A stretch of DNA of 64,000 nt from NCBI GenBank assembly GCA_963782525.1, contig CAWAKC010000007.1:224001-288000 (forward strand). Direction: 5' to 3'. The notes below the pieces were generated by a model. It saw nothing but the letters and a program-made list of their open reading frames with translations. It did not search any database and was not told where the DNA came from. This DNA is from Candidatus Bathyarchaeota archaeon (GTDB lineage: Archaea > Thermoproteota > Bathyarchaeia > Bathyarchaeales > Bathycorpusculaceae). Positions 341-40,459 of this stretch are shown piece by piece. Made by a program: the position numbers and the translations under genes. The first letter of the stretch is position 1. The number at the start of each line of letters is the position of its first letter.

Positions 341-898
341 GTGAACTACTCGCCACTTTCGTGGCGAGCATCTCCAGAAAACCGCGTTCACTTAGTCGAG
401 TTTATTTTCTGTTGATGTATTCTTCGATTTCTGCGCCGGTAACGTCACCTGCAGTCCTCTCAGCGTAACCCTCTGACCACAAATGCCCACCCCAAAGATG
501 CTTCTTAATATCAGGAAACTCGACGAAAAGCACTCTAGCGGAAACGCATTTGAGAACACGCCTTATCTTAGGGATCGACACTTTTGTTGGAGCAGAAACA
601 AACACATGCACATGGTCGCCACCATGAACCCTGGCAACTAACAGTTGACAATCATTCTGATCAACAATCGTCTTAAGTACAGCTTCAAGCCTAACTTTAA
701 CTGAGCCCAAAAGTACCTTGCGCCGGTATTTAGTGGCCCAGATAAGGTGGTAGTTGACTTGGTAAGCACACGTCCGAGCTTTATCCAGTCTCTCATCCCC
801 TTATCCAACGGTGAGAAAACTAAACAAACGCCAAAAACATACGACTTACGGTACGAATACGCATTCATCCTGCCGCGTTAGCGGCAGGTATTCTGCTA
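341..898. mobile_element. IS200/IS605-family element lacking tnpB
   Basis: Terminal hairpins CTCGCCAC-TTTC-GTGGCGAG (349-368, preceded by TGAACTA) and CCTGCCGC-GTTA-GCGGCAGG (869-888, preceded by CATTCAT) flank tnpA. Confidence 0.85.
402..796 (-). pseudogene. tnpA: IS200-type Y1 HUH transposase TnpA with start out of frame
   Basis: The frame of ORF 402-710 extends upstream as RLDKARTCAYQVNYHLIWATKYRRKVL, with HUH motif DHVHVFV, LWSEGY and catalytic Tyr in EEYI. The ATG at 796 (ATGAGAGACTG) is out of frame by an extra GA. Confidence 0.85.
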
Positions 899-18532: not shown

Positions 18533-20953
18533 ATGAGCCAAGAAAAAAACAAAAAAATTACCCTCAACATTGGCGGCATGAGTTGCATAAACTGCGCTCA
18601 CACCATTGAAAAGGAACTTGCCAAACTAAAAGGTGTAACCCAAGCTACCGTAAACCTCGCTGCTGAACAAGCACTAATAGACTACAACCCCGACCGCATC
18701 ACTCAAAAAACTATCGAAACCGCCATCACCGACGCAGGCTACCATGTAATCCACGAAAAAATCGTCCTTCAAATCGGCGGCATGTCATGCGTTAACTGTG
18801 CCAAAACCATCGAGAAAGCCCTGGGCAACCGCGAAGGAGTCTACAATGCAGTCGTCAATTTTGCCGCTGAAAGCGTCTCAGTTGAATACAACCCCCAGCA
18901 AATCAGCTTGCCAAGCATCAAAAAAACCATCCAGGACAGCGGATACCAAGTAATCGAACAACAACAAAAAACCCATGAGGATACAGCGGGTGAAGAACGC
19001 AAACGCCACATCCGGCACCTAAAAATTCTCTTAGTCACTAGCGTTGCCCTGACTATTCCAATCCTTGTTTTGATGTGGCTCTCACCTCTGCCCATGGAGC
19101 AAAACAACATCCTCATGTTCCTGCTTGCAACGCCAGTTCAGTTCATCGTGGGATGGACCTTTTACGTTGGCACCTACAAGGGGCTGCGAAACAAGACCAC
19201 TAACATGGACACCTTAATTGCCATGGGCACATCCACCGCATGGATCTACAGCACCTTCGTTACTTTTGCCCCAGGCGTTTTTCCAGGGGCTGGAGTATTC
19301 TTCGATACCGCTACCATGATTATGAGCTTCATTTTGCTAGGAAAACTCTTAGATGCCGTAGCTAAGGGCAGAACCTCGGAAGCCATCCGAAAAATCATGG
19401 GTCTCCAAGCCAAAACAGCCCGAGTCATCCGCAACGGTGAGGAACAGGAAATTCCAGTTGAAGACGTACAAGTAGGCGACATCGTCGTGGTTAGACCGGG
19501 AGAAAAAATCCCCGTCGACGGCACGGTTACCGAAGGCTATTCGGCAGTGGACGAGAAAGTCATCACGGGCGAAAGCATTCCAGTCGAAAAGAGAATCGGC
19601 GACCAAGTCGTAGGAGCCACCATGAACAAGACGGGTATGCTCAAGTTCAAAGCCACCAAAGTGGGCAAAGACACAGTTCTTGCCCAAATCATTAGCATGG
19701 TTGAAGATGCGTTAACTTCGAAAGCGCCTATTCAAAGATTAGCCGACATTGCTTCCGGATATTTCGTTCCAGCCATCATAATTACTGCGACACTTTCAGC
19801 AGTGTTATGGTACTTTATTGTCGGAGCATCCTTCATTTTCTCACTCACCGTTTTCATCGCAGTGTTAATCGTGGCTTGTCCTTGCGCTCTTGGACTCGCT
19901 ACTCCGACAGCGATAATGGTGGGTGTCGGAAAAGGAGCAGAAAACGGAATCCTAATAAAAAGCGGCGAAGCATTGGAAGCGGTATACAAGCTTCAAGCAG
20001 TTGTTTTTGACAAAACAGGAACACTAACGAAGGGCGAACCCGAAGTAACCGACATCGCCCCATCTGAACCGTTCGGGGAAACCCAGCTTCTGCAGTTCGC
20101 CGCTATCGCAGAGAAAAACTCCGAGCATCCGCTGGGAGCAGCCATAGTGAAAAGAGCAAAGGAAAAGGGAATTCAAGTTGATGAACCGGAATTGTTCAAC
20201 GCTATCCCTGGATACGGAGTAGAGGTGGAACATAGGGGCGCCAAAATATTGTTGGGTAACCGAAAACTGATGGAGGCAAACAACTTGGACATCAAGGCGC
20301 TTGAGGGGAAAATGTCGGCGTTTGAGGAAGAAGGCAAAACTGCTATGCTCCTCGCCGTTGACAACCAACTTGCGGGTTTAATAGCGGTGGCTGACACCTT
20401 AAAGGAGCACTCCGCCGACGCAGTTAAGACTCTTCAACAGATGGGATTGGAAGTCATCATGATTACGGGCGACAACCAGAGAACCGCCAAAGCCATCGCA
20501 GCGCAGGTAGGCGTTAACCGCGTCTTTGCAGAGGTTCTTCCAAGCGAAAAAGCAACAGAGATAAAGCGTCTGCAATCCGAAGGCAAAGTTGTTGCTATGG
20601 TTGGTGACGGAATAAACGATGCTCCTGCTTTGGCGCAAGCAAACATTGGAATTGCTGTCGGCAGCGGAACAGATGTAGCTATTGAAACGGGAGATATCGT
20701 GTTAATTAAGAATGATTTGAGGGATGTGGTGGTAGCTATTCAGTTGAGCCGCGCTACGATGAAGAAAATTCGCCAGAACCTTTTCTGGGCATTCTTCTAC
20801 AATATAGTCCTCATTCCCTTAGCGGCAGGAGCGTTCTACCCTATTTTACATGTGCTATTCAATCCGGTGTACGCGGCGGCAGCTATGGCAAGCAGCTCAG
20901 TAACCGTGGTTACCAACGCTTCACTCCTCAGGAGATTTAAACCAAAAATCTAG
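18533..20953 (+). CDS. copA: Cu(I)-translocating P1B-type ATPase
   Basis: Two GMSCxxC HMA domains, [26 protein letters not shown] and MAxSS motifs. Confidence 0.95.
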
Positions 20954-20986: not shown

Positions 20987-21175
20987 ATGGCTAAAGATTT
21001 AGTGTGCAACATGGATGTAGACGAGAAAACTGCTAAGTACAAAACTATCTACCAAGGCAAATACTATTATTTCTGTGCTCCGGGATGCAAAAAATCCTTC
21101 GAAGCAAACCCCCAAAAATACATTGGAGGTAACTCGTCAAATCACAGTTGCAATTGCGGTCACGACCAATGCTAA
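20987..21175 (+). CDS. YHS/TRASH-domain metallochaperone
   Basis: DLVCNMDV...YYFCAPGCKKSF, C-terminal HSCNCGH, Shine-Dalgarno GGAGGTGA. Confidence 0.9.
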   Translation: MAKDLVCNMDVDEKTAKYKTIYQGKYYYFCAPGCKKSFEANPQKYIGGNSSNHSCNCGHDQC

Positions 21176-21331
21176 ATCGTTAAGGTTTAGCCTATGACGT
21201 TCTTTTCTTTTGTTTCTTTAAGCTTTTTTCGCTCGGCAAATTTTGGTATTTTTATTCTTTTGATGAGCACCAAATAAGGGACAAACGCGTGCTCAATATC
21301 TTACGAAAATTTATTATATAAAAAGCTCGTT

Positions 21332-21697
21332 TTGAAGTATAGTGAGTCTGATTACTCACTCTTGGCGATAGATATGGAAAATTTGGAATCAAAGAATAAA
21401 CCGCAGACAGAGGCTCCAACTCTGGATGGGTTAATCAAAAGGGAATGGGAAATGATCATTGAACTCCACAAAATGCTCAAAGACCCTGAACTCACAGTAA
21501 CTGAGAGGACACGGGTAGCCACAGTTTTTGCCTTCCACGCAAACACATTGAACAGGATGCTAACCCAAAAGGGCGAAAAAAACCAGTTTGAAGACCAAAA
21601 CTTGGGGGACTATGTGAGAGGCATAGAACCAAGGGTAGCTAGACGTTTTAGGCGTGACTTTAGAGTATGGAAGAAAGCACTTACGTCGAGAAGGTAA
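21332..21697 (+). CDS. Small helical protein upstream of terminase (possible small subunit); likely start 21374
   Basis: Overlaps the TerL start, predicted helical; assignment is positional only. Confidence 0.55.
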   Translation: MKYSESDYSLLAIDMENLESKNKPQTEAPTLDGLIKREWEMIIELHKMLKDPELTVTERTRVATVFAFHANTLNRMLTQKGEKNQFEDQNLGDYVRGIEPRVARRFRRDFRVWKKALTSRR

Positions 21698-23136
21698 TTA
21701 ACGATCCTGAATTCGCGTTCCAAGCCTATAATGATCTTAGGCGAAGACCCAAAGCCTTCAAAGAACTATGCTCTTACCGTGAAGTGACACGCAAACTTGT
21801 ACAAGATCCTGCGTTCTTTGCCATTTTAATGTGCGGCGACGGCTGGCTAAATAAAGCACCCAACCACCAGAAACTTCTTCAAGACCAGAGTTCAAGGCAG
21901 ATCGCTGTTTGTGGAAGAGGCTGGGGAAAAAGCCTTGTTTTTAGCCGAAAAAACCTCTGGCTTCTCTTCACAAAACCCAATTGCGAAAGTCTGATAATCA
22001 GCAGTACTCAACGCCAAAGCATGATCATGTTTGACTATTGCTACTCCACCATAATGGCAAATCCGCTTATGCGCGATATGCTTCAACGTCCTGGAACGAC
22101 GCGCACAGTTATTAAGCTAAAACCCCCGATAAACAGTAAACTCATCGCGTTGCCCTGTTCCCCAGATAAGCTCAGAGGTTATCATCCTGACTGGGTCTTT
22201 CTTGATGAGGCAAGCATTATCCCAACTGAGATGATCACTAGTGAAATCATGATGATGCTCACAAAACCCAGTTCCTCCTTAGTTATGAGCGGAACACCTA
22301 TGGCGTTTGACCACGTTTTTCGCAAAGCTTTCCTGGACACAAAACGCTACTCAATACATCATTACCCAAGCGATTCCAGCCCTCTTGTGAGTCAAGCGCA
22401 ACTCGAGGAATGGCGAGACATGATGACCAAGGAAGAATGGCAAAGAGAAGTTGAAGCGCTCTGGGTCGAAGCAACCCAGACTTTCTTTCCCATGGATCTC
22501 ATAGCAAAATGTATAGACCCTGAACTGGACAATCCAGCTTCCCCAAACCAGTATATCCAAGACATAGAACACATCGACAGCCAACAGTTGATCGGCAGGT
22601 ATTTTGGGGGTTTAGATTTGGGCAAACAAATTGACTTTAGCGTTCTGGTGGTGGTTCAGCTAACAGATGATGGCGAAGTTAGGCTGGTGCATAAGCGCCA
22701 GTTTCCTCTGGGCACGTCCTACCCAGAAGTTATCGCTTACGTAGCCAAAGCCTGTCAAGCCTTCAACTTTGACGGAATGTACGTTGACAAAACGGGTATA
22801 GGCGACGCCGTAGTGGATGAGCTCGAGGGTATAGGTATTCCAGAAGTAAAAGGCGTCTTCTTTACGGACGCAGAGAAAGAGAACATGCTCAACTACCTCA
22901 AATTACTAATGGAGAAAAAACAACTTCGCTTACAAGGCGGGGACAAGCAGCTTATTGCCCAAATTAACGAGCAACAATACGAGTACCTCCAGCCAAGCAC
23001 AGCGCAAGAACACATCCATATGAAATATAGGCACCCCAGAGGCAGACACGACGACCAACTATTTGCTTTAGCGCTAGCCTGTTATGCAACCAAAGAAGCC
23101 CAACCAGAACAGTTCGTTTTCATGGTCCCAAGATAA
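21667..23136 (+). CDS. Terminase large subunit-like ATPase/nuclease
   Basis: Walker A CGRGWGKS, LRG, Walker B VFLDEA, SGTP coupling motif; RNase H-fold GLDLGKQIDFS, VDKTGIG, HDDQLFALAL. Confidence 0.9.
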   Translation: MEESTYVEKVINDPEFAFQAYNDLRRRPKAFKELCSYREVTRKLVQDPAFFAILMCGDGWLNKAPNHQKLLQDQSSRQIAVCGRGWGKSLVFSRKNLWLLFTKPNCESLIISSTQRQSMIMFDYCYSTIMANPLMRDMLQRPGTTRTVIKLKPPINSKLIALPCSPDKLRGYHPDWVFLDEASIIPTEMITSEIMMMLTKPSSSLVMSGTPMAFDHVFRKAFLDTKRYSIHHYPSDSSPLVSQAQLEEWRDMMTKEEWQREVEALWVEATQTFFPMDLIAKCIDPELDNPASPNQYIQDIEHIDSQQLIGRYFGGLDLGKQIDFSVLVVVQLTDDGEVRLVHKRQFPLGTSYPEVIAYVAKACQAFNFDGMYVDKTGIGDAVVDELEGIGIPEVKGVFFTDAEKENMLNYLKLLMEKKQLRLQGGDKQLIAQINEQQYEYLQPSTAQEHIHMKYRHPRGRHDDQLFALALACYATKEAQPEQFVFMVPR

Positions 23137-23150
23137 CAAAGCACAAATCT

Positions 23151-23501
23151 TTATCCTTGCTCAGAAACCGAACTTTTCAAAGCGTCTTCAATCTCACCCC
23201 TCAACTCAGAATCGCGCACCTTAAGCAACAACCCAACCAGACGGCCCGCAATATTTACCTCCACCCCTCCTTCTCCGCGGTAAAATCGCCTTCCCTTGCG
23301 TAACCAATCAACTAAAACCCGAGCCTCAGCCTCAAAACCTTCAATGTTTCTTTCAGGAAAAACCAAAAGCTCACCCTCCACACAAACGCCCATAAACTGC
23401 TCAAAAGCACCAGTTACGGTACACCCTCCTGCAGAAGCTACACTCTTGAAATCACTGTAAAGCTGGGCTTCAAACCTAAAGCCCTTAAAGACCTTAGCCA
23501 A
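23151..23501 (-). CDS. Putative ribbon-helix-helix-like DNA-binding protein (start reassigned to TTG 23501)
   Basis: MAKVFKGFRFEAQLYSDFKSVA...TVTGAFEQFM has a strand-helix-helix pattern; the upstream extension in the ORF track runs through the repeat. Confidence 0.55.
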   Translation of the reverse strand: MAKVFKGFRFEAQLYSDFKSVASAGGCTVTGAFEQFMGVCVEGELLVFPERNIEGFEAEARVLVDWLRKGRRFYRGEGGVEVNIAGRLVGLLLKVRDSELRGEIEDALKSSVSEQG

Positions 23502-23615
23502 CGCACAAACCCCTGTATAAACAAAATATATAAACAAAATATAAACAAAACGCCCAACGTCAACAAACACCTCTCAATCAAACAGTGAATAAGCTAGAGG
23601 AAGCATGTTTCGGGT
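23493..23615. repeat. Copy A of a ~120-bp direct repeat with three TATAAACAAA iterons
   Basis: CTTAGCCAAC...TGTATAAACAAAATATATAAACAAAATATAAACAAAACGCCC...TCAAT..AAAC..GAAGC.TGT..GGGT aligns with 39773-39893. Confidence 0.85.
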
Positions 23616-23745
23616 CCTCATGCAAAAGCTCCCTATATTGTCCATGGTTAAAACACAGTTAAAATTCTTTTTTACAGTTTTAACTCATTCAGAGTGCTCA
23701 GAGACTTAAGAAAAAAAGGGTTTAATTTTGGATAATTAACACAAG

Positions 23746-24558
23746 TTAAGTTGTTTTCTTTATCAAAAGCTCACAAATACCGTCGATGCTTTGAACTGCA
23801 GCGATTTCCTTGTTTTTTAGCGGGGTTTCTCCAAGCATATCTGCCTCGATTACTTTTTGGTCCCATGGCACAAAAGCTAGAACCTCAATGCCGTTTTGGT
23901 CAGCAAAAGTTTGGATAGCATTTTTCTGGGTGTCGTTCATTACGCGGTTACCTATAAGATAGAGTTGTTTCATGCCCGCAGCCATTGCCATATCATGGAT
24001 GTGCTTTGCGATTTCCAGCGATTTCAGGTTAGAATCAGCGACAATTAAGAGGGCATCGACTTCTTTTGCGGTGCCCCTGCCGATGTGTTCCACGCCTGCC
24101 TCCAAATCCAAGACCACTGCCTCGTCGCGTTCCACGATTAGATTCCGCAGGAGCGCTCGGATAACGGCGGTTGGGGCACACATACAGCCTGCCCCCATGG
24201 AGTGAACTGTTCCCATAACAATTAAATTTACGCCAAGAGGGGTAGGAACAGAGTACTGTTTCACGATGTCGTCGACACTGAAGTTCAGATTGTAGACGCC
24301 TGAGTAACCCGTACTCGTTTTTGACTCAATCAAGGGTTTATTTTCTGAAATAGGAACTATCTTACGGGTTTCCTCCGTTGACAACCCCAACGTTAACCCC
24401 AAATTCGGAGAAGAATCCGCATCAATTCCTATAGTTTTTAAACCGCGTTCAGAAAAACCGCGGGCCAAGCCGCCAGCGATGAGAGTTTTGCCAACGCCGC
24501 CTTTACCAGAAACAGCAACCTTCATACAATCACAAACTAAAAATAATTTCATAGTCAA
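23746..24558 (-). CDS. cooC: CooC/AcsF nickel-insertion ATPase
   Basis: MKVAVSGKGGVGKT, IDAD..PNL, GCMC, DLEAGVEHIGRG. Confidence 0.88.
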   Translation of the reverse strand: MTMKLFLVCDCMKVAVSGKGGVGKTLIAGGLARGFSERGLKTIGIDADSSPNLGLTLGLSTEETRKIVPISENKPLIESKTSTGYSGVYNLNFSVDDIVKQYSVPTPLGVNLIVMGTVHSMGAGCMCAPTAVIRALLRNLIVERDEAVVLDLEAGVEHIGRGTAKEVDALLIVADSNLKSLEIAKHIHDMAMAAGMKQLYLIGNRVMNDTQKNAIQTFADQNGIEVLAFVPWDQKVIEADMLGETPLKNKEIAAVQSIDGICELLIKKTT

Positions 24559-26043: not shown

Positions 26044-26334
26044 GTGGATCAAGAAAACTCCGACATCGCCGTGGTGGGAACCAAAGGCCAGATAGTTATT
26101 CCTCAACGCTTCAGAAAAGACCTGGCAATAACTCCAAACACCAAAATTATTGTATACCGAAAAGACGACAAACTTGTCCTAGCAAAACTCAAAGTTCCAC
26201 CACTAGAAGAACTAAAAGAACTTTTTGCAGAAATCGACCAACAAAACAAACAAAATAAAAAGCCAACCGAACAAGAGATTCTAAGCGACATTCAAGCTTA
26301 CCGACGAAAAAAGCGAGAAAGCAAAGGCGCATAA
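26044..26334 (+). CDS. AbrB/MazE/SpoVT-family antitoxin
   Basis: VGTKGQIVIPQRFRKDLAI. Confidence 0.88.
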   Translation: MDQENSDIAVVGTKGQIVIPQRFRKDLAITPNTKIIVYRKDDKLVLAKLKVPPLEELKELFAEIDQQNKQNKKPTEQEILSDIQAYRRKKRESKGA

Positions 26335-26335
26335 A

Positions 26336-26745
26336 ATGGTTCGCGTGGTCCTTGACGCTAATCTTTAGTGTCATCTCTTATCGATGAAGGAAAACCGCGA
26401 AGAGTTGTTTTTGAACTTTTAGACAAACATACTGTCGTATTATCTCAGCAAATGCTAGCTGAACTAGCCGATGTAATTTCAAGAGATAAATTTAAGGTTA
26501 CAATATCTCAGGTTGATAGGTTTGTTTCAAGCTTAGTTCGTTTGTCTAAAATGGTGCCAGATAGTGCCCGTTTTAAAGTTGTGTTGCAAGATCCTGATGA
26601 TGACGTAGTTCTAAACACGGTTTATACCGGGAGGGCCGAGTTTATCGTTACAGGGGACAAGCATCTTTTGGAGTTGGGTTCTTTCAAGAAAACTAAGATC
26701 ATAACTGTAAATCAGAGGCAAGACATCTTAATTGATAAAAAATAG
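26336..26745 (+). pseudogene. PIN-domain (VapC-like) toxin, frameshifted after codon 10
   Basis: ATG 26336 reads MVRVVLDANL* and the body continues in another frame (DPDDD..L, IVTGDKHLL). Confidence 0.8.
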
Positions 26746-29589: not shown

Positions 29590-29700
29590 AATTTTCAAAA
29601 ACTTGGTTAGATAGGACCAGCAATTGGAAGCATTTCTGGATCCATTTTAATGCTCTGCGAAGTTGCTTGGAATAAGGCAATTTTTCATGAGCACCAAAAG

Positions 29701-30960: not shown

Positions 30961-31044
30961 CCTAACCCTCCAATTACACCATAGTGCGCCTTCTTCTTAT
31001 CGTTTGCTGGATAAAGATAAAACACTTTTTCAAAACTTAATTCC

Positions 31045-31139
31045 TTATTTTAGTCCTTCTCTTTGCTTTAAATAAACCATCATAACAGTAAACAATAGTG
31101 CAAAAACCATAATTATCCACAGACTGGAAATTCTGGAAC
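31045..31139 (-). pseudogene. Orphan PEF-CTERM tail without an ectodomain
   Basis: VPEFP, then frameshifted SLWIIMVFALLFTVMMVYLKQREGLK*. Confidence 0.65.
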
Positions 31140-31226
31140 TTGAGTGCGAGACAATAAAAAATGATAACTTTCAAGTATGTACTTGAACAGTTGAAATTAC
31201 CCTCGAAGAGCCCACCTATAACATAC

Positions 31227-31721
31227 TCAATATTTTAACCAACGCTCTTTCAATACTTCATCAATTAATGCTTTGGTTTCTTCCATTCGCTTCAAATGCC
31301 TTTGTCCTATAAGAAGCCAATTAACCTGAAGGTCACCAGCCTTAATTGAATTCTGGTTCTGCACAAAAGCCTCTTTCGCATCTCTTACTCTTACAGCTTC
31401 ATAATCAGTGCCTTTTATTTTGCCATATACTTTAGTTAGCTTTTTTAATTGATCGGAATCTAAAAGTTGTAGTTGTCCGCTGGCAACGGCTAAATCCCAC
31501 ACGTCAGGATAAAGTTTGTAGGCATCACCAGTTAAGCTTTCTTTCAAGCTATTAAGCTCACAAGAAATATTCTTTAGCAATTCTTTTTTTGTATGTTGCG
31601 CTTTTCTCCAATCAATAACTCGGTCAAGCATGAAAGCCAGAAAAACTCCAGAAAATGTAACTACTAATTCGAGTAATAGAGCTACTTGATTGATACTTTC
31701 AGACATCTTGTTAACTTTCAC
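31227..31721 (-). CDS. Hypothetical protein with N-terminal TM helix
   Basis: 164-aa ORF, one TM segment then helical domain. Confidence 0.7.
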   Translation of the reverse strand: MKVNKMSESINQVALLLELVVTFSGVFLAFMLDRVIDWRKAQHTKKELLKNISCELNSLKESLTGDAYKLYPDVWDLAVASGQLQLLDSDQLKKLTKVYGKIKGTDYEAVRVRDAKEAFVQNQNSIKAGDLQVNWLLIGQRHLKRMEETKALIDEVLKERWLKY

Positions 31722-32159
31722 TTTAGCTAAATATTTCTACGCTATTTAGTTTTAAGTGTTTGCTGTGAAAGAAGATGGTTGAATAGGGGGTGGAATTGAG
31801 GTTAACGTTGGACTCCATAGTACGGTTAAGTAGAAAATGGATAAATTCTGACATTACTAATCAAAAATGGTGGTGTTAGCTTCTGTTAGCTTATTTTACT
31901 AACATTTAACGTCAATAGATGGTTAATCTTTCGTATTCAAATACTTGCCACCATCATTTGTTGGAACATTCAATATATCATATATTATTTTGAATGCCGA
32001 TAAAGCTGTCGACCAATTTAATGGTGAATTATTGATATTTGATGCTAAATAGGCTAAATCCAGAAAAAGTCGTAGATACTTCAAGATTCTTATTAACCTT
32101 AGTTTCCCATGTTTCCATGTTCTTGTAGTCTTCAAAGACTAAGAAACTAACAGTTTTCA

Positions 32160-32579
32160 TTATTTGCTGTTTTGCGCTGGATATTGGCATTCTTTTAATT
32201 CTATCAAAGAAGGTATAGGAATGCCTTGATTTATTTTTTGAAATAATTCATCAACTATTTTTAGGCAGTTATCTCTCTGTGCATTTAGCTGTATTAGTCT
32301 AGGCTTTATAAAATAAACAAGGGTATAAACCAATATCATAAAAATAACTATATTTAGAAGACTTGCTAAATCGGAACTAGCTTTCAAATTAATTAATTGT
32401 GAATATACTGTTCCCTGAAAAAATAAAGTTGCAAGAAAAATAAGATATCCAATAATAAAACCGTAATGAATCGAATAAGATATGTTCACTCTTGTTTGAA
32501 AATAGCTCATTAAAGCTTGAACTCTTTGCAACTCCACCTCTCTATCGACAACCATAGCTTTTTGTTTTTCATTAGCCAT
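32160..32579 (-). CDS. Hypothetical 2-TM membrane protein
   Basis: 139-aa AT-rich ORF with two hydrophobic segments. Confidence 0.65.
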   Translation of the reverse strand: MANEKQKAMVVDREVELQRVQALMSYFQTRVNISYSIHYGFIIGYLIFLATLFFQGTVYSQLINLKASSDLASLLNIVIFMILVYTLVYFIKPRLIQLNAQRDNCLKIVDELFQKINQGIPIPSLIELKECQYPAQNSK

Positions 32580-32664
32580 GCTTACGCTATTTCTACGTTA
32601 TGAAGTTTTAAGTTTTTGCATCGTAGTATAAGTCTTAAAAGACAATGCTCTATTAGTTAACACT

Positions 32665-33369
32665 ATGGCTATTCAACCGTTTGGAGTAAAAGTTAAAGAA
32701 AAACACAACAGAAAGCTTTCGTTTGAACAAATTATTAGTATAGTTCTAAGCATTGCGCTTCTTTTCTCTACTGTCTATTATGCTAGCCAAAATGATAATT
32801 TGCAAAAATCAAATGCTGATTTGCAAAACTTACTCTATAACTATACACCTTTCATATTTTCAAATTATTCAAGCTCAAATCTTCAGAATATATTCTTCTC
32901 AATTAATGATTCAGTCATTTTGTTTGATGGGTGGGTTAACGTTGATTTGAAAGTTGTTTCCCCTTATGATGGGATGTTGAATTTAGACGTTAAAAATTTG
33001 AATTTTACAGATATGAATGGCTCATACGATATAATACCGTATTATTTCAACGTGAGTCTTCTTCAGTATTCAAAGGCTTCAATCGCTGGAGCAAATAATC
33101 ACCAATATTTTATCTCTAAAAATGTTATGAATCCAATAGTTGATAAAATCGAGGTTCAAATGTACGTCTATCTAAATACTGGAGTCCTTCAGGATGTTTT
33201 CAAGGATGTTGGAGTAAATAGCACACTTGGCGTGGGTTTCCCTTTAGGTGATATGACCTTTCAAGCTACCCTTTTTGAAACTCAAATAAACAGAAACTAT
33301 ACTCAGAATTTTATTGAGGGAATACATTGTGAAATTAATAAAAACCCTCAACGGATTATTATTGGGTAG
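32665..33369 (+). CDS. Hypothetical membrane-anchored exported protein
   Basis: N-terminal TM, short coiled coil, Asn-rich with several NxS/T sequons. Confidence 0.7.
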   Translation: MAIQPFGVKVKEKHNRKLSFEQIISIVLSIALLFSTVYYASQNDNLQKSNADLQNLLYNYTPFIFSNYSSSNLQNIFFSINDSVILFDGWVNVDLKVVSPYDGMLNLDVKNLNFTDMNGSYDIIPYYFNVSLLQYSKASIAGANNHQYFISKNVMNPIVDKIEVQMYVYLNTGVLQDVFKDVGVNSTLGVGFPLGDMTFQATLFETQINRNYTQNFIEGIHCEINKNPQRIIIG

Positions 33370-33555
33370 ATTTATAACTTGAAATAGACATTTTGCTCTT
33401 GCTTTTTTTCATCTTCCTATTTGCTGTCTTATTACTGCTGACAACAAATTGTATGAAACAGCAAAAGACCACTTCAGCGTTCTAAATATAAAAGAATATA
33501 AATAAAGTTCTAAAATTATAGCGTTGAAACTTCCTTAACTAAACTTGATTTATAA

Positions 33556-34509
33556 TTAGTCAAGTTTCTCGACTAATTCAGTTTTGGGTTTGTACTTCTT
33601 GAAGTAAACCAGTAAGCCTACACCTACAATGAGTGCTAATGTTCCAGAAGCTATAATTACCAACAATGTTGGCAATGGTGAGGTTCCTATTGTGTTTGGA
33701 CTGAAGACAATAACAGCACCATGAATAAATGGAAAATTTTCATTTTCTTGAGAAATTACCAATTCATTTGAATTAGTGTAGTTTAATGGCGTTAGTGTCC
33801 CATTAGTATGTATAGAATAGGCTTGTATCTTATTTGAAAACGGTTCAACTTGTATATTGAATTTTTCAGGTAAATATTCGAACCAAGAATAGAGAGGATA
33901 TGAAATATTGCTACACCCATAACGCCCATAAATTGGAATTATTAATGCGTAATCTCCCAAATAGCCATAAGATGAACTGGTTTTTGGAATAGGTTGTTCA
34001 TAGTGAACTGTCACAAGAAAATCGCTTGGAACTGGAGAAACTGTCCAATTGACTTCCGCTAGATTGGCATCAAAAATATGGAAAAATCCCTTGTTATCTA
34101 TTTGCCATTTAATTTCTTGGTTATTTATCTTTACTGATAGGTTAGTTATATTTGTTGGAATTGGATAGTGAGCTTCTAATGTATTTTGTGTGACTGTAAC
34201 AGTTACATAAGGTGAGGGGTCTGTTACCAAGCCCATCCCGCTGTTTCGAGCAACATAACTATCTCCGAAACCGTAGATGGTATGCATATGATATTCTGCA
34301 TCAACATTCGCCCAAAATACTCCACTGGAACTTGAAATTGAAGCATGAATATTCGTTCCAGAAACTCCGACCTTCGGGGGAATCTCCGTATACATGGGGT
34401 TTGCTCTAACCGTATTAAAACTTTGAAGTTCGATTGAAATTAAAAGAACCATTGCTAAGAATATGGCTGTCGATATTCTCTTGATGGCAAGGTTTCTTTT
34501 TCTACGCAA
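33556..34509 (-). CDS. Secreted protein, ANP / VYFKK-anchored family
   Basis: Signal peptide ending VRA-NP; SPLPT plus TM plus LLVYFKKYK. Confidence 0.8.
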   Translation of the reverse strand: MRRKRNLAIKRISTAIFLAMVLLISIELQSFNTVRANPMYTEIPPKVGVSGTNIHASISSSSGVFWANVDAEYHMHTIYGFGDSYVARNSGMGLVTDPSPYVTVTVTQNTLEAHYPIPTNITNLSVKINNQEIKWQIDNKGFFHIFDANLAEVNWTVSPVPSDFLVTVHYEQPIPKTSSSYGYLGDYALIIPIYGRYGCSNISYPLYSWFEYLPEKFNIQVEPFSNKIQAYSIHTNGTLTPLNYTNSNELVISQENENFPFIHGAVIVFSPNTIGTSPLPTLLVIIASGTLALIVGVGLLVYFKKYKPKTELVEKLD

Positions 34510-34671
34510 AATTGCACCCGTTGGTTCATTTTTTTAGTATTAGTTTTTAATGTTTTAAGGTGTTAGTGCGGGTATTATTTGGATTTCAATTTGTATACTT
34601 GCCTTATTAACCGACTGGAAATAAAGGCTTATCGTAAACTTCATTGTCTAAAGTCTTTCAAAGTTTCTTAA

Positions 34672-35838
34672 CTATCCAGTATTACGTTTATGCTTCTTGA
34701 AGTAAATCAGCAAACCGGCGACCACAAACACCGCAGCTGCTATCGAAACAGTGCCAACAGTTAAAGTTGGAAAGGTCTCAGATCCCGCATTGGGATGCGT
34801 TGGACTTGGCGAACCAGTCGATGTAGGATTTGGCCCAATCAAGGCGGAAAATGGAAATATTACAGGATAATGATCGATGGCGGTTCCTAGAACTGCGGTC
34901 CCTGTTTTGGTGGTACCGTTTGCATAATTATCAGAGTAGTTTGTGCTGTCGATGATCGCATAAGGTATGTCGCCTATTCCCAAATGGCCCAATTCCGTAG
35001 CATTAGGGTACTTTGACAGGTAATCACTCCAGTAGTTTCCGACAGAACCGTTGTCCCATTGTCCTGCGGGAGATAGTGGAACTATATTTGATACGAATGG
35101 CACGCCGATTGGAACATGGAGTATCTGCGAATTGTTTATGAAATTGTTAGAATAAAGTAGTTGGAATCCGGCGCTGTTTACATTCGCACTTTGAGTGCCC
35201 AGAGTCAGTACCACAGTGTTGTTTGTAACGTTGTTCTCTATGATTGTTGTTCCGTTGCTGTTTAGGATGTCGAGCGCCCAGTTGTTGTTTGTTATGTGGT
35301 TTTGCATTATAAGGTTGTTGTCTCCTTGCAAACGAGTAGCTCCTGTGTCGATAAGAATCGCGGCGTCACTGCTGCCCGACATACTGTTTCCACTCACGAG
35401 GTAATCATCGGCGTATATTGCGATGGCTTGATAATTGCCCCTGAACACGTTTCTTGTTATGGTGTTGTTGTTGAAAGCGCCGTAGACTCCAGCTTTCCAA
35501 CTAGTCACTTGCAGGTTTTCGACGGTTACGTTGCTAGCCATTAGAGTTATTGCTATAGCGTTCTGACTTATGCCAGGACCTTGAAGAGTATGGTTGGCTC
35601 CGTCCAACACGATATTCCCTTTTTCTACGGTTATGGAGCTGTTAAGATCCGCAGTTATTCTGTAGGTGTTTCCTTTCATTTGCATGGCAACGCCAGAAGG
35701 TGTGACGCTTCCGTCTGCTTTGATGGTTATTCCTGTAAGAGATTCAGCTTTAACAGACTGAAGGGTAATTACACAGGATGCCATCAGGAAGATAAGAACA
35801 AACAGTAGGGTGAAGCCTTTACTCATATTCATCCACAT
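34672..35838 (-). CDS. Secreted NosD/CASH-type parallel beta-helix protein
   Basis: ITIKADGSV, NIVLDGANHTL, Asn ladders, GNYWSDY, IDHYP; ETFPT plus TM plus LLIYFKKHK. Confidence 0.85.
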   Translation of the reverse strand: MWMNMSKGFTLLFVLIFLMASCVITLQSVKAESLTGITIKADGSVTPSGVAMQMKGNTYRITADLNSSITVEKGNIVLDGANHTLQGPGISQNAIAITLMASNVTVENLQVTSWKAGVYGAFNNNTITRNVFRGNYQAIAIYADDYLVSGNSMSGSSDAAILIDTGATRLQGDNNLIMQNHITNNNWALDILNSNGTTIIENNVTNNTVVLTLGTQSANVNSAGFQLLYSNNFINNSQILHVPIGVPFVSNIVPLSPAGQWDNGSVGNYWSDYLSKYPNATELGHLGIGDIPYAIIDSTNYSDNYANGTTKTGTAVLGTAIDHYPVIFPFSALIGPNPTSTGSPSPTHPNAGSETFPTLTVGTVSIAAAVFVVAGLLIYFKKHKRNTG

Positions 35839-35886
35839 TAATTATGATATAATTAGTGATAAAAGAGTTCTTTTCAAGGTTCTTGA

Positions 35887-36714
35887 TTAATTCAGTATTA
35901 GCTTATGTTTCTTAAAGTAAACCAGTAAACCCAAACTAATGATAATGGCAATTACTACAAGTGCAATAACTGTAAATGGAAATGATGTCTCAGGCGCTTT
36001 AGCAGTAAAATTTATTGTCTCTGATTTTGTCATATCTCCAAAAGTATTATTGCCAAAAACAACTATGCTGTGATTTCCAGAACTTAGTCCTGTTAAAGTT
36101 TTATTTCCACCTATAGTCACATTGGCTAAATTATCTAAGCTGTAGCCTAACCATGAAGTTGGCTGGTCAACTGTGAAATTCAAAGGAAAAGTTGAAAATG
36201 TTATGTTAGCACTCTGGTCTGTCAGAAGCTTAATTGAGGGAGCTTCATGCGTGATAAAGTAGACTTGAGATGAACTGTCCATAAAGAAAACAAAACTAAA
36301 CATATCATAAACACTTCCTTCTGCCTTAACTGTTAGGCTGTGGTTGCCTGCTGCTAAGTTAGGTGCAACAAAGGAAGTATAATACTGAGAAGTGCCATGC
36401 TCACCTTTCACAAGAATAAAACCTGCGTGTGGAATACTAACACTCTCGTCATCTATTTTGTAAGTCACATCAACGATATCAGAATCATAGCTACTGTATT
36501 GTGGTCCTTTAACGCTAAAGGTAATATTGAATGCCCCTGAGTAGTTAGCGTTGTTTTGTGGGCTGCCTATAGAAATAATTGGTGGAACCGCGCCTTTTGG
36601 AGGGTCAATCTGAGGTGTAAAACCGTAGGGGTTAGCATCCACGCCCTCAATCGCTTGTATCCCAATCAGCAATGAAAGAGCAAACACTATAGAAAAACTT
36701 ATTGTTCTCTTCAT
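35887..36714 (-). CDS. Secreted Ig-like-domain protein, ANP / VYFKK family
   Basis: VDA-NPY; SPQN, LNFTVD, YSLD, TLTGLSSGNHSI; FPF plus TM plus LLVYFKKHK. Confidence 0.82.
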   Translation of the reverse strand: MKRTISFSIVFALSLLIGIQAIEGVDANPYGFTPQIDPPKGAVPPIISIGSPQNNANYSGAFNITFSVKGPQYSSYDSDIVDVTYKIDDESVSIPHAGFILVKGEHGTSQYYTSFVAPNLAAGNHSLTVKAEGSVYDMFSFVFFMDSSSQVYFITHEAPSIKLLTDQSANITFSTFPLNFTVDQPTSWLGYSLDNLANVTIGGNKTLTGLSSGNHSIVVFGNNTFGDMTKSETINFTAKAPETSFPFTVIALVVIAIIISLGLLVYFKKHKLILN

Positions 36715-37616
36715 TTTTTCCCCTTCATTCTCTTAAAATAAACGATTAAGCCAACAGTAGCTAGCGCAACCGCAAACATTGAAGCTAGAACCCAGAGCAT
36801 TGAAAACTGCAAAGGACTCGAAGAATCAGTTTCTACTTTGAAAAAAAGGATGCCTGAAGTGCCTACATACCCAAATGTGTCTGTTGCACAGACCGTAATG
36901 TTATGTTGCCCGTTGGATAAGCCAGTTAGAGTTGTGTTTCCTTTAATTGGTACAGGGTCTTGTCTATCTAGGCAGTAAGTCAGTTTTGGAACCGAGCGGT
37001 CGACTGTAAAACTCAAAGGAAAAGTAGAATTCGTTAAAGAACCATTCTGAAATGATACAAAACTGATTTTGGGGCTTGTATGCACCAAGAGTCCTGCTGC
37101 TGATGAGTTGACATAGAATTTTACCGATATTGGCTTTTCCAAATTAAACGTATATTCGGTTCCATTTTTGTTATAATCGCCGTGTCCATTTGCAACAATG
37201 TTTAAAGTACGATCTCCAGCTGGGATTCCACTAATGTTGAAGTTATATTGCAAGAAACGATTCTCTCCAACGGGATCCACACCAGGCGGAAAAGGACTCC
37301 ACTTTGCGTTTGACATCCAATCGCCCTGATATGTGGTGACTATGTTTAGATTTGTCGTAAGCCCCTCAGGTTGGTTTATTGTTTCATTGAAACAAAAATT
37401 AATGGGTCCATCGGAAAATGAAGCATTCTCCATCGGAGAAGTAACTCTGATGGTTATATTGACGTTATCGGGTGCAGGTACATCAACTGGAAACTTGAAT
37501 CCATAAGGATTAGCCTTGACAGACACAAAGGGGGCATCCACTTGCTCAACAACTTGAATTCCAACAACTAAAAGAAGAGCAAAGACTCCTGCAAATATGG
37601 CGTATCTTCTCTTCAT
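36711..37616 (-). CDS. Secreted Ig-like-domain protein, ANP / VYFKK family
   Basis: VKA-NPY; SPMEN, LSFTVD, GNTTLTGLSNGQHNI; TM plus IVYFKR. Confidence 0.82.
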   Translation of the reverse strand: MKRRYAIFAGVFALLLVVGIQVVEQVDAPFVSVKANPYGFKFPVDVPAPDNVNITIRVTSPMENASFSDGPINFCFNETINQPEGLTTNLNIVTTYQGDWMSNAKWSPFPPGVDPVGENRFLQYNFNISGIPAGDRTLNIVANGHGDYNKNGTEYTFNLEKPISVKFYVNSSAAGLLVHTSPKISFVSFQNGSLTNSTFPLSFTVDRSVPKLTYCLDRQDPVPIKGNTTLTGLSNGQHNITVCATDTFGYVGTSGILFFKVETDSSSPLQFSMLWVLASMFAVALATVGLIVYFKRMKGKK

Positions 37617-38203
37617 GGCTGCCCCTTTCTTCTCCTAAAGTAAACCAATGAGATTGAAGCAACAGCCACTATTACAATCACAATAGCCAGGATATAGACT
37701 ATAGAGGGATTTAACGCAACTTGCATTTTGGGACCTGTGTTAATTGTTGGAATGTTTTGGCTTGTAGTTGGAGTAGCTGAATTAGGGATAATGCCTACTG
37801 TAAACAGCCAATTGGCTGATAACACCTTTCCTTCTGAGTCAGTTGCATAAGCATTGATTGTGTGGTTTCCTATCATTAGGTTGTGTAAGTTTTCCGTGAT
37901 AGAATATATCTGATGATTATTAGGCAAATCGGACTTAAACCAAGTTGTGTATTCTAAATTGGTAGATGTAATATTTGCCTCTCCGTCTAGGCTATAGCTA
38001 ATTGAAACAATTGCTTGAGCATCCATTGAAATATGTACCTCTACGGTGAAAGTGTAGTTGTTCCCATTTGGATAAGTTGGGTTATAACCCCTAACGTATA
38101 CTGAGGGAATTGGGTAAAAGTTAGCTTCTAACATAGGTATTGATGATAACACTGCAATTGCTGACAGTAGGATGATTGTTGTTGCCAAGAGTTTCTTTGG
38201 CAT
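37613..38203 (-). CDS. Secreted single Ig-like-domain protein with TM anchor
   Basis: LEA-NFY; YSLDG, GNHTINAYATD; LVYFRRRK. Confidence 0.8.
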   Translation of the reverse strand: MPKKLLATTIILLSAIAVLSSIPMLEANFYPIPSVYVRGYNPTYPNGNNYTFTVEVHISMDAQAIVSISYSLDGEANITSTNLEYTTWFKSDLPNNHQIYSITENLHNLMIGNHTINAYATDSEGKVLSANWLFTVGIIPNSATPTTSQNIPTINTGPKMQVALNPSIVYILAIVIVIVAVASISLVYFRRRKGQP

Positions 38204-38329
38204 ATACCGTTCCTGTCATATTATGAAGTTGAGTTTGCTTAAGTGGTTTTTTGTCAAACTTTCTTGCCTAAAGTTAGTCAAGATAGTTTTACAAGAAGTC
38301 TTTTATCCGCAACCAACCCTAACCTTAAT

Positions 38330-39023
38330 CATGGGCAGTACAAGCAAGAGCTTCTCGGTACTTCTTGTCGTTATCTTAGCAGTATCAAGCCTAATAATGG
38401 TTGAATCTGCCTCTGCCCAATCAATACCTACACCATCTGTTCCAGAATTTACTGTAACGCTTATCGCTTCTCCTCCTGACAGCCATTTTGTAAATAAAAC
38501 AATAGAGTTGGCAATCAAAAATCAACCCTCCTTTCCTAAAAATGGGTTTTTCTATAATGTTCGCATAAGAATTAACGATGGTAATTGGGGTCTTCTCTAC
38601 CCTAACAATAATAGTGTGCCAAACCAGTCCGATGGTGAATATACAATCTTATCATACAGTTCAGGATATCTTGGGGTTGAATACCAATATCTTTTAGGAT
38701 ATAAGGTAGAGAACCTGACTGCAGATGATAAAATAGATTTTCAAGTACAAGCCATGGTTGGGTCTATATACCGAGTTTTTAACCCTAATGCAACAAACCA
38801 ATTAGAAATGTATCCATATATTTTTACTGGAGAAACAAGTGATTGGAGCAACACACAAACAATAACCATACCTGAAACTTCCACCTCACCCGCACCAAAT
38901 CCAACACCAACTCCTACCCTTTCAGAGTTTCCAGCTTTGGCAATTTTGCCTTTGTTTATTTCTTTGCTCTCTGTGGGTTTGCTTTATAGAAAGCATCGAA
39001 AGACCGCTCGATTCAGTGAGTAG
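38330..39023 (+). CDS. Secreted protein with VPEF near the N-terminus and SEFP anchor (start reassigned to ATG 38330)
   Basis: MGSTSKSFS signal, SIPTPSVPEFT, DFQVQA, GETSDWSNTQTITIP, LSEFP plus TM plus KHRKT. Confidence 0.8.
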
Positions 39024-39139
39024 CTTTTTCATTCTTATGTGGTATGTGACAGGTTGAGACGGTAGAGATGATGATTGAGATAGACTAAATCTGAGAGATT
39101 ATTCTCCTTATTTTAGATAGAGTACCAGACTACATTCAT

Positions 39140-39688
39140 TTAATCAAGTTTTGAATCTATTGTGAAATAAACCTTGGTTTGAGCTAAATGGTCGAGGTCA
39201 TTAGCTTTCAAGTCTCCAAAAACTGTTATCCTGTGAGCGCCTTCGGACAGTTTTTGCAGAGTAATTGTTCCTGTGATTATTCCCACATATTGGTCATTTA
39301 GAGACCTTGGTTGTTCAATTACGGGAAACGGAAGGCTTTCTTGACCATCGAGGCTATAATTCATAAACAATTCAATGTTACTTGCACGTATTACTTGACC
39401 AGTGATATTCAGAGACAATATGTTTGAGCTGTAGGTTGTGTTAACTGGGGAAGTTATAGCAAAGAAGCTCAAAGGCTCGTCAAATGATGCGTTAGTTGTT
39501 GAAGATGAAGTCGGAGAGGGACTTGGGGAAGTCAATTGTGAAGTGGCATTCGGAGAGGGAGATGGATGGGGAGTTGGAGAACTATCGGTATGCTCGGAAA
39601 TTGGTAAAAAATATACTCCCAAGGCGATTATAGCCACTATCGAAACTAACAGAACTAATAAGGCAAAAGCTATAATTCTTTTATTCAT
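39140..39688 (-). CDS. N-anchored Ig-like-domain protein
   Basis: N-terminal TM, SP/TP linker, ITSPVNTTY, YSLDG, LSEGAHRITV. Confidence 0.8.
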   Translation of the reverse strand: MNKRIIAFALLVLLVSIVAIIALGVYFLPISEHTDSSPTPHPSPSPNATSQLTSPSPSPTSSSTTNASFDEPLSFFAITSPVNTTYSSNILSLNITGQVIRASNIELFMNYSLDGQESLPFPVIEQPRSLNDQYVGIITGTITLQKLSEGAHRITVFGDLKANDLDHLAQTKVYFTIDSKLD

Positions 39689-39772
39689 TTTGCATTAACA
39701 CTTTACTCAGAAGAAAATGGTTTGTTAGAAGTTAAAACGTTTTCTAATAAATTTGGCTTCTAACGCATATAT

Positions 39773-39893
39773 CTTAGCCAACAGGAACCGCTTTGTATAA
39801 ACAAAATGTATAAACAAATCATATAAACAAAACGCCCGCCGTTCGCAAACCCCTATCAATTAAACGGTCTGATAAACAGAAGCTTGTCGGGGT
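39773..39893. repeat. Copy B of the ~120-bp iteron-bearing direct repeat
   Basis: CTTAGCCAAC...TGTATAAACAAAATGTATAAACAAATCATATAAACAAAACGCCC; retains the TTG GCT AAG start codons but not the gene. Confidence 0.85.
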
Positions 39894-39943
39894 TTAATAA
39901 ACACGACGCAGATTCCGGCATTTTAGGTTAAGTCGGCTACCGA

Positions 39944-40459
39944 TTAGCAGGTATCTGAGGGTTTCATTTGCTTCAGCATGGTTTTCCGTGGAAGAAAACC
40001 GTATTTTGCATAGAAACAGAAAGCTTCCTAGTTGCCAGAGGCTACCTCAACGATTTTTGCCACTGCTCCTTCCTGATCCATCCAGCAGAGCGCTTTTTTC
40101 ATAAGTGAATCCCCTATTCCCGAGCCCCGGTAGTTAGCGCCAACAAAAATGGATTCAGCCTCACCTATCATTTCTTGATTGAGGCTGCTAACGCAATACC
40201 CAACATTTTGGCCTGTCACTTCATCGACAGCTAAGTCAACTCTCATTTTTCCAGAAGCGGCTTTTTTTATTAAATCTGCCTTTCGCTTCTCAAAAGTCAT
40301 ATCTTTATAGTGCTGCTTAAAATTGGTCGATAAACCTAAATGGTGACTGTTTAGGGCGTCCCACAAAACCCTGATTTGATCAAGCAAAGCGTCGTCACCA
40401 TGAATGAACTCGACACTTCGTTTATTCATCAAATAACCTACCCACTCAAGAGCAATCAT
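39944..40459 (-). pseudogene. GNAT acetyltransferase with an in-frame TAG
   Basis: ESIFV..NYRGSGIG motif A; after TAG (40028-30) the frame continues EAFCFYAKYGFLPRK to TAA at 39944. Confidence 0.8.

Follow-up and report, generated by a model that had tools for sequence, protein, structure and literature searches.

A 64-kb stretch of a Candidatus Bathyarchaeota archaeon genome (hereafter the window; positions 224001-288000 of contig C7 of the source genome G000, which measures 2.87 Mb and is 95.8% complete) contains, at window positions 21258-23667, a three-gene module in which a small gene, sA, overlaps the gene for a large terminase subunit, TerL, and a third gene, c19, converges on the pair. 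Our sequence comparisons firmly support a description of this module as a virus-derived terminase pair with intact catalytic motifs and a predicted DNA-binding neighbor, which appears to be kept by selection as an accessory part of the chromosome and whose cognate virion genes have no match in the genome. The module is probably a working virus-derived unit and not viral debris.

TerL conservation and selection on the module

The 489-aa TerL reading frame (21667..23136, + strand) matches known terminases far beyond chance, and these matches describe it as a complete large terminase with an N-terminal P-loop ATPase domain and a C-terminal RNase H-like nuclease domain, both of which are recognized in the sequence. 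It matches the PHROG family phrog_2, "terminase large subunit", over residues 69-476 with an E value of 2.4e-35, and Pfam Terminase_6C with an E value of 1e-6 (29.3 bits, above the 22.6 cut-off); the match to Pfam Terminase_6N, at 16.6 bits, lies below the 22-bit cut-off. The profile of the window's own TerL subfamily, hereafter subfamily A, also matches PDB chains named "Phage terminase large subunit" in the nuclease domain (7.5e-11) and in the ATPase domain (1.2e-5). Among 39 subfamily-A sequences, 146 of the 489 TerL positions are invariant, including the motif CGRGWGKS, D180-E181, G209-T210-P211, D317, D374/D380 and D462-D463, which we take to be the Walker A and B motifs, the coupling motif and the acidic residues of the nuclease. 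The first-pass annotation, made from the letters of the window, had listed these catalytic motifs as retained, and all of them are indeed invariant in the 39 sequences as well as in a 31-row alignment.

The module is widespread but unevenly so. Of 41 related genomes, 32 carry a match to the TerL family, and a single genome can have as many as 8. In a scan of one genome per species, subfamily A is found at 45 loci, the titles of which all name Bathyarchaeota/Bathyarchaeia, Crenarchaeota or an uncultured archaeon, and clustering of the reading frames called a TerL at 41 of these, with 37 of the 41 proteins at least 480 aa long and 4 truncated. Within six genes of TerL (43 loci), sA is found 40 times and c19 21 times, and any other cluster at most 6 times; homologues of the tail-side and head-side clusters of related viral arrays lie within 10 kb of TerL at none of 41 loci. 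A metagenome scan gave at least 439 relatives, from which the best 80 were kept; 8 of these have no TerL reading frame and 34 have less than 2.5 kb of upstream sequence, and among the 38 that could be assessed 35 are solo, nearly all with a full-length TerL. The remaining three comprise one contig identical to the tail-gene contig L031 described below and two that keep merely the small upstream genes c4 and c11. Of 301 genomes drawn from across the class, 7 give a strong match to the sA profile (E < 1e-38), and all 7 belong to the window's own family, so the module is accessory and patchy in its distribution. Four RNA libraries, each from a different study, yielded contigs that match parts of sA, TerL and c19 with 90-99% identity, which may be read as a weak hint of expression: the contigs derive from relatives, and DNA may occur in such libraries. 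Positions 23504-23875 are uncovered in all four, a gap that carries no weight either way.

Selection was characterized by pairwise Nei-Gojobori estimates of the ratio of nonsynonymous to synonymous divergence (dN/dS), using pairs with 0.05 < dS < 1.5. The median dN/dS is 0.107 for TerL (75 usable of 741 pairs), 0.23 for sA (93 of 780 pairs) and 0.27 for c19 (99 of 253 pairs). Since a low dN/dS could date from time spent inside active viruses, we compared copies that share their flanking genes, which were already solo in their common ancestor and in which purifying selection therefore postdates the solo state. In the window's own flank-sharing group the TerL dN/dS is 0.05-0.12, out to a dS of 1.46; a second such group gives 0.055-0.081, and a third, with one usable pair, 0.079. 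These values are similar to those of the adjacent host gene cooC (0.03-0.08), and solo copies of a paralogous TerL subfamily, hereafter subfamily B, have a median of 0.112 over 16 pairs. The low ratios among flank-sharing copies argue against plain decay.

This bears directly on the simplest alternative, that the module is a functionless remnant of a decayed provirus, with intact frames due to recent decay and low dN/dS due to an earlier viral life. Decay certainly occurs in this family, with 2 of the 5 TerL loci of G000 broken and 4 of 41 subfamily-A loci truncated, the ancestry from tail-gene arrays is clear (see below), and a lone thaumarchaeal TerS-TerL pair has been read as a likely relic (Krupovic et al. 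2019, PMC6563490). The fact that decay does occur at other loci makes the intact majority more telling, with 37 of 41 genome loci intact and the assessable metagenome loci (35 of 38 solo, from the best 80 of at least 439 relatives) nearly all carrying full-length TerL. With the flank-sharing copies held at a dN/dS of 0.05-0.12 out to a dS of about 1.4, the remnant explanation is largely refuted and seems to us very unlikely. The first-pass annotation had likewise argued against a simple decayed provirus, and the recurrence of the module in dozens of species, the invariant motifs and the purifying selection all speak for that view; close homologues (65-75% identical) do lie in tail-gene arrays, but other assemblies share the arrangement and selection on it is not relaxed.

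Viral ancestry and the search for virion genes

The origin of the pair in tailed-virus-like elements of Bathyarchaeia is well supported by sequence. On two contigs from viral collections, a subfamily-A TerL stands in a co-directional array of tail genes: L031 (7 kb), in which TerL is 75% identical to that of the window, and L117 (11.7 kb), in which it is 65% identical. The array runs in the order of a Phage_tube_2/"minor tail" protein, a tail-assembly chaperone, an HK97-gp10/Neck1-like protein, a 182-aa unassigned protein, a tail protein of 693-763 aa, c4, c11, sA and TerL, and in L117 a protein joining an ABC-type ATPase and a GNAT domain follows TerL. As for a head module, the two contigs reach only as far as tail genes. 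The same gene order is seen for subfamily B in 7 genome loci, or 8 counting L031, and these arrays extend further upstream through genes of 120-149, about 465 and about 340 aa that match no family in Pfam or PHROGs. In the ESM Atlas, the upstream genes of 462 and 339 aa fall nearest to clusters described as "hypothetical, mostly Uroviricota", which is a lead toward a viral nature of these two genes and not proof of a portal or capsid. Other TerL types in these genomes follow the classical order, in which genes of about 480 and 300-420 aa come after TerL.

A tree inferred by maximum likelihood from 83 TerL rows groups subfamily A in one clade (support 99), made up of 45 solo rows with L031 nested among them, and in subfamily B the full arrays and the solo pairs are interleaved, with full arrays on the deeper branches. 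Because of the tail-gene arrays and the tree placement of full and solo forms, it is well supported that solo pairs derive from tailed-virus-like elements and that they did so more than once; in these elements an sA-TerL or c1-TerL pair closes the array that includes the tail genes, as its packaging end.

The source genome itself holds five TerL loci, as found with the TerL protein as query: the window copy, two intact paralogues (C7:54-1526 and C6:14068-15516, of 490 and 482 aa and about 30% identical to the window's TerL) and two broken ones, frameshifted on C1 and fragmented on C3. The paralogous loci span C7:54-1914(-) (L008), C6:13641-15516(+) (L009), C1:446411-448511(+) (L007) and C3:76040-76908(-) (L010). 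At the C1, C7 and C6 loci a protein of 154-188 aa, c1, with a Myb/GcrA-like helix-turn-helix (HTH) domain and a helical C-terminus, lies upstream of TerL, and none is seen beside the C3 fragments. An ABC-ATPase fused to, or split from, a GNAT domain lies downstream at two of the paralogous loci.

Two further observations concern these arrangements. The ABC-ATPase/GNAT gene stands beside degraded or partial TerL loci (L010:8089-9540(-) and L009:10800-12253(+)), where the C6 gene adjoins a DndD-like SMC protein, an Sp-DndD small protein and a ResIII helicase, and the C3 gene adjoins a DUF790 protein and an XPB-type helicase. Separately, a co-directional array of about 12 genes (L047:1165-11912, on G014:C1; also in L046, L057, L048, L054, L032, L051 and L117) ends in a small gene and TerL, followed by an approximately 480-aa fusion of an ABC-type ATPase with a GNAT domain, and occurs in two copies in one genome; it may be a compact provirus or an element resembling a gene transfer agent (GTA).

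No portal, capsid, tail or integrase family was found among the 69 window open reading frames (ORFs) scanned with Pfam or the 20 unassigned window ORFs compared to PHROGs, in agreement with the earlier statement that no portal, capsid or integrase is recognizable in the 64 kb. Across G000, tblastn with every member of 11 structural clusters (c29, c15, c14, c7, c13, c5, c12 and c8 of the full type, and c16, c23 and c22 of the classical type) gave 0 matches, and of the genes of related arrays the genome holds only c4 and c11, beside the C6 paralogue. Genome searches with the Phage_capsid and Phage_portal families were negative, with controls that matched; for Portal_Mu the control itself had no match, which leaves that search without weight. 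Neither in the window nor in the genome was TerL found inside a head-morphogenesis module with portal and capsid genes, and divergent structural genes elsewhere in G000 are possible.

Such genes would be needed by a dispersed GTA, one of the roles suggested in the first-pass annotation, in which head and tail genes would lie elsewhere in the genome in a form too divergent to recognize. Profile searches often miss the head and tail proteins of archaeal viruses and related elements, c15 and c14, which are putative head-side genes of the arrays, themselves have no Pfam or PHROG match, and GTA-like elements have been proposed for Thaumarchaeota (PMC6563490). A GTA would have resident head and tail genes serving the terminase, and none were found in this 95.8%-complete genome: the tblastn searches with all structural clusters of the related arrays are empty, as are those for capsid and portal families, and the module is patchy within the genus, unlike a fixed GTA. 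The suggestion thus found no support and strikes us as highly improbable, and a dispersed GTA and plain decay are the rivals least compatible with the tblastn and flank-sharing dN/dS results.

Partner genes, module edges and possible function

The open frame of sA covers 21332-21697 (+), 121 aa from a TTG, and orthologues indicate that the real start is the conserved ATG at 21374, giving a 107-aa protein (21374..21697, +) whose gene overlaps the start of TerL by 31 nt. Its presence beside TerL at 38 of 41 genome loci places it where tailed viruses carry the small terminase subunit, TerS. The AlphaFold model (predicted local distance difference test score, pLDDT, 85.5) consists of three helices, the C-terminal one basic. 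The gene occupies the same slot as the HTH-bearing c1 of the paralogous arrays; a relationship between sA and c1 was considered and dropped, as the profile comparison with hhalign gave a non-significant probability of 0.3%. It seems reasonable, then, to call sA a positional equivalent of TerS and not a demonstrated TerS. A distant protein of interest in this respect is found on L118, a 32-kb viral-collection contig that also carries an integrase and a Cas4-like exonuclease, where a 324-aa protein (L118:8386-9360(+)) upstream of a 44%-identical TerL has a weakly sA-like C-terminus (BLAST E 3e-6) and may possibly be a long form of the small partner.

The non-coding leader, which together with the left edge of the conserved block occupies 21258..21373 (+), includes an A/T-rich, TATA-like stretch, TTTATTATATAAAAAG, at about 21310-21325, some 50 nt 5' of the ATG at 21374; TTTATTATATAAAAAG may be the promoter of sA-TerL. 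At about ten loci of the subfamily (L031, the tail-gene contig, and L082, L084, L085, L087-L089, L092, L101 and L105), 1-3 direct copies of a motif near TATTTGGATCATAT lie 30-80 nt before the sA start. The window's own clade lacks this motif, which could serve as an operator or as a recognition site for the terminase.

The convergent gene c19 has an open frame at 23151-23570 (-), 139 aa from a GTG, and its conserved core starts from about 23501 (23151..23501, -; about 116 aa). The first-pass annotation had called it similar to ribbon-helix-helix (RHH) proteins, and this holds in part. At its N-terminus the sequence shows an RHH pattern. In the predicted structure (pLDDT 79, with the first 11 residues as coil in the monomer), residues 1-45 align to the RHH domains of PutA, DinJ, VapB12, TacA, RelB and NikR with Z scores of 5.3-6.0 and a root-mean-square deviation of 2.3-3.6, below the Z of 8 that the alignment tool gives as a guide for a distinctive match, and c19 has no Pfam match and no significant Foldseek match in the PDB, where RHH antitoxins head the non-significant list. 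An RHH-like N-terminus is accordingly suggestive and moderately supported by the model. The C-terminal 60 residues form a conserved helical/beta unit, an alpha/beta domain with generic matches only. A c19 homologue lies near TerL at 22 of 41 genome loci.

The likeness of c19 to antitoxins is part of the case for a capsid-independent role, in which the terminase would be an ATPase-nuclease recruited by the host that cleaves the incoming DNA of viruses or plasmids where a terminase recognition site is present, or a nuclease of the abortive-infection or toxin type restrained by c19. The top structural matches of the c19 N-terminus include the RHH antitoxins DinJ, RelB, TacA and VapB, purifying selection on TerL is as strong as on a neighboring host gene, the distribution is patchy and accessory, structural genes were not found in the genome, and MazE-PIN pairs lie nearby repeatedly, with one relative carrying the module beside a Piwi-domain gene. 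Type II toxin-antitoxin genes are co-transcribed and always found together, whereas c19 is convergent to TerL, not co-transcribed with it, and lies within six genes of it at 21 of 43 loci, being missing from about half of the loci. Conservation extends over the whole of TerL, moreover, and takes in the N-terminal region as well as the coupling motif that serves translocation. We consider a capsid-independent nuclease unlikely, if the most credible of the alternatives.

The edges of the module are sharp. Similarity to the DNA of the closest relatives sets in at 21258 against L072 and at 21287 against L074, and upstream of this the relatives have unlike DNA or, in one case, a 6.5-kb insertion. 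On the right, where an A/T-rich region upstream of c19 leads to the end of the conserved block (23502..23667, -), similarity to L072, L073 and L074 stops or breaks at 23665-23667, and about 870 bp are inserted exactly at this edge in L072 and L074. Since similarity edges and insertions fall at 21258-21287 and 23665-23667, the 2.4-kb block behaves as a unit. Its G+C content of 0.42-0.47 does not contrast with the surroundings. The positions of the module are stable inside sub-clades and differ between them.

A bounded block of this kind could be a selfish mobile or addictive module, spreading by homing-like cutting of empty sites followed by repair copying, or persisting by post-segregational killing. 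The insertions and unrelated DNA found exactly at both edges in relatives, the chromosomal context that varies between sub-clades and the several TerL matches in some genomes (up to 8) would fit this explanation. The stable positions inside sub-clades do not, the paralogues within the genome are about 30% identical, which indicates no recent burst, and no terminal repeats or target duplications were found around the module. One candidate pair of attachment (att) sites, the 17-nt repeat TTTTGATGAGCACCAAA at 21258 and 29682, was dropped: it has just two occurrences genome-wide at up to 1 mismatch, the number of matches in the window at up to 3 mismatches is reached by 4 of 100 shuffles and so does not exceed chance, and in close relatives the DNA runs on unbroken across the second copy at 29682. 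A selfish module seems to us quite unlikely.

The genes around the module are those expected from the first-pass annotation, which had placed a small ORF, an unbroken 489-aa TerL and a convergent gene between copA/YHS and cooC. All these ORFs are in place, and the flanks consist of an 806-aa ORF at 18533-20953 on the left, the sequence of which fits copA, a YHS-domain ORF at 20987-21175, and on the right a CbiA/MinD-type ATPase at 23746-24558, the cooC of that annotation (Pfam scan for the latter two). The window otherwise contains cellular genes, an IS200-type transposase and a MazE-PIN pair, as judged from Pfam for the 69 ORFs and PHROGs for the 20 unassigned ones. The Y1 transposase ORF (402-710(-), 102 aa, E 1.3e-22) aligns from profile position 23 and may be truncated at its 5' end. 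The MazE-type antitoxin and PIN gene lie at 26044-26745, and intact MazE-PIN pairs recur beside the module in other species; the PIN gene of the window (26368-26745) has no counterpart to the first 31 positions of PIN_3 and may be truncated. Recurrent neighbors across loci are MazE-PIN pairs, HTH_45 winged helix-turn-helix (wHTH) genes and ParA genes, mixed with ordinary metabolic genes, and on G019:C9 (L024:4562-7386(-)) the module lies two genes away from a Piwi-domain protein of 506 aa, which has a 433-aa partner, and is beside a ParA/wHTH set.

Window positions 31000-40000 have a low G+C content (0.30-0.40) and about 10 ORFs, mostly without a Pfam or PHROG family, the exceptions being ORFs at 34672-35838 and 35887-36714 that match NosD and Big_7. 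A repeat of 32 nt, with copies at 31732 and 32588, was never obtained in shuffles. This stretch may be the "cassette array" which the terminase had been proposed to serve; no tie between it and the module was found, and a link with an adjacent array or a junction motif gained no support.

Taken together, we tentatively prefer a role in trans: an accessory terminase-only module that would act on the DNA or procapsids of related tailed viruses, interfering with packaging, hijacking capsids in a way that transfers adjacent DNA, or both. The first-pass annotation had named a packaging hijacker and a defense factor among its suggestions, and the results do not set one above the other. We favor action in trans because the whole motor is conserved and not the nuclease alone, and because the environment holds virus-like elements whose terminases are 65-75% identical. 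In this mechanism, the RHH-like protein c19 would keep the sA-TerL pair under transcriptional control. Infection by a related tailed virus, or its induction, would then provide concatemeric DNA together with empty procapsids. At that point the sA-TerL pair would cut DNA and compete for the incoming portal, which would lower the virus yield and amount to interference or defense. If the module has a chromosomal cut site of its own, the module and adjacent host DNA could also be loaded into the borrowed capsids, which would allow spread in a satellite-like or lateral-transduction-like manner. Compatibility with the portals of circulating viruses, the cut site, repression by c19 and the effect on viruses are all parts that we infer.

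Several results weigh against an action in trans on viruses. For sA, no Pfam or PHROG family, no Foldseek match in the PDB at E <= 0.001 and no resemblance to a known TerS family by any of these routes was detected, and its model has no separate HTH domain. The gene c19 is near TerL only in about half of the loci. No pac-like packaging site was identified in the window's clade, and no integrase, replication or helper-sensing genes typical of satellites are in the window. The stable positions in sub-clades fit vertical inheritance as well as they fit transduction, and many neighbors are ordinary metabolic and not defense genes. Finally, L031 and L117 come from one metagenome project, and the collections searched gave few such viruses.

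A bolder version of the trans role is that Bathyarchaeia carry widespread capsid-less, terminase-only elements, the smallest conceivable virus satellites, which parasitize the procapsids of related tailed viruses, blunting infection and launching headful packaging from the chromosome, with the several elements per genome (three intact ones here) forming a repertoire matched to the circulating viruses. We regard this as rather doubtful. Were such terminase-only satellites real, the variable islands adjacent to them would be highly transferable.

Comparison with known systems

Terminases are regarded as hallmarks of tailed viruses, and annotation usually treats an isolated one as debris of a prophage. 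Lone pairs of TerL and a gene in TerS position are common in this lineage, sometimes with several per genome, and are constrained like neighboring host genes. Provirus prediction that counts TerL as a hallmark will report too many viruses here. If the pairs act on viruses, archaeal hosts or mini-satellites would have in them a previously undescribed means of exploiting a packaging motor, and possibly a gene-transfer engine in an abundant, uncultured lineage of sediment and peat.

The window's TerL is like the TerL of tailed viruses (Terminase_6N/Terminase_6C, PHROG 2, PDB 5m1q, 5m1f and 4zni) in both domains, their order, its length and its catalytic motifs, and the small gene that overlaps the 5' end of terL in viral TerS-TerL pairs has a positional counterpart in sA. 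Unlike the viral genes, the module is chromosomal and solo across species, with portal, capsid, protease and tail genes not found in the 64 kb or the genome.

Satellites of the phage-inducible chromosomal island (PICI) type redirect packaging via small terminases. Known satellites have genes for integration, replication and regulation, and their packaging functions are as a rule limited to a TerS or an inhibitor. Packaging-redirecting satellites, both PICI and the phage-inducible chromosomal island-like element (PLE), are host-resident, interfere with a helper's motor and gain transfer by doing so, which is our working model for the module; the module differs in having 2-3 genes, one of them a complete TerL. 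The PLE of Vibrio cholerae reportedly acts on the large terminase of its helper (bioRxiv 10.1101/2024.04.22.590561). Features of a PICI-like satellite were not found here, as the 69 window ORFs include no integrase or primase family, no convincing flanking repeats were seen and the sole tRNA gene is 32 kb from the module.

GTAs encode their own heads and tails, and lateral transduction starts from a complete prophage or PICI. Both GTAs and lateral transduction from chromosomal pac sites involve the terminase-driven packaging of host DNA starting in the chromosome, as is proposed here, and they differ from the module in that the terminase alone is resident in the present case. Lateral transduction is the topic of PMC8575950 and PMC12829572.

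In the papers on Bathyarchaeia that were consulted, terminases are mentioned just inside proviruses or viruses, and a main-text search with a limited set of terms found no description of conserved solo terminase modules. The nearest precedent is NitKor-E1 in Ca. Nitrosopumilus koreensis AR1, which has a TerS-TerL pair, beside toxin-antitoxin genes, and no other tailed-virus gene; the authors called the function of the pair enigmatic and considered it a probable relic (Krupovic et al. 2019, PMC6563490). NitKor-E1 is likewise an archaeal terminase pair without other tailed-virus genes, a likeness drawn from its description. It is, however, a single case within an integrase-bearing element, while the module described here, with no integrase found in the window, recurs in dozens of species and carries a signal of selection.

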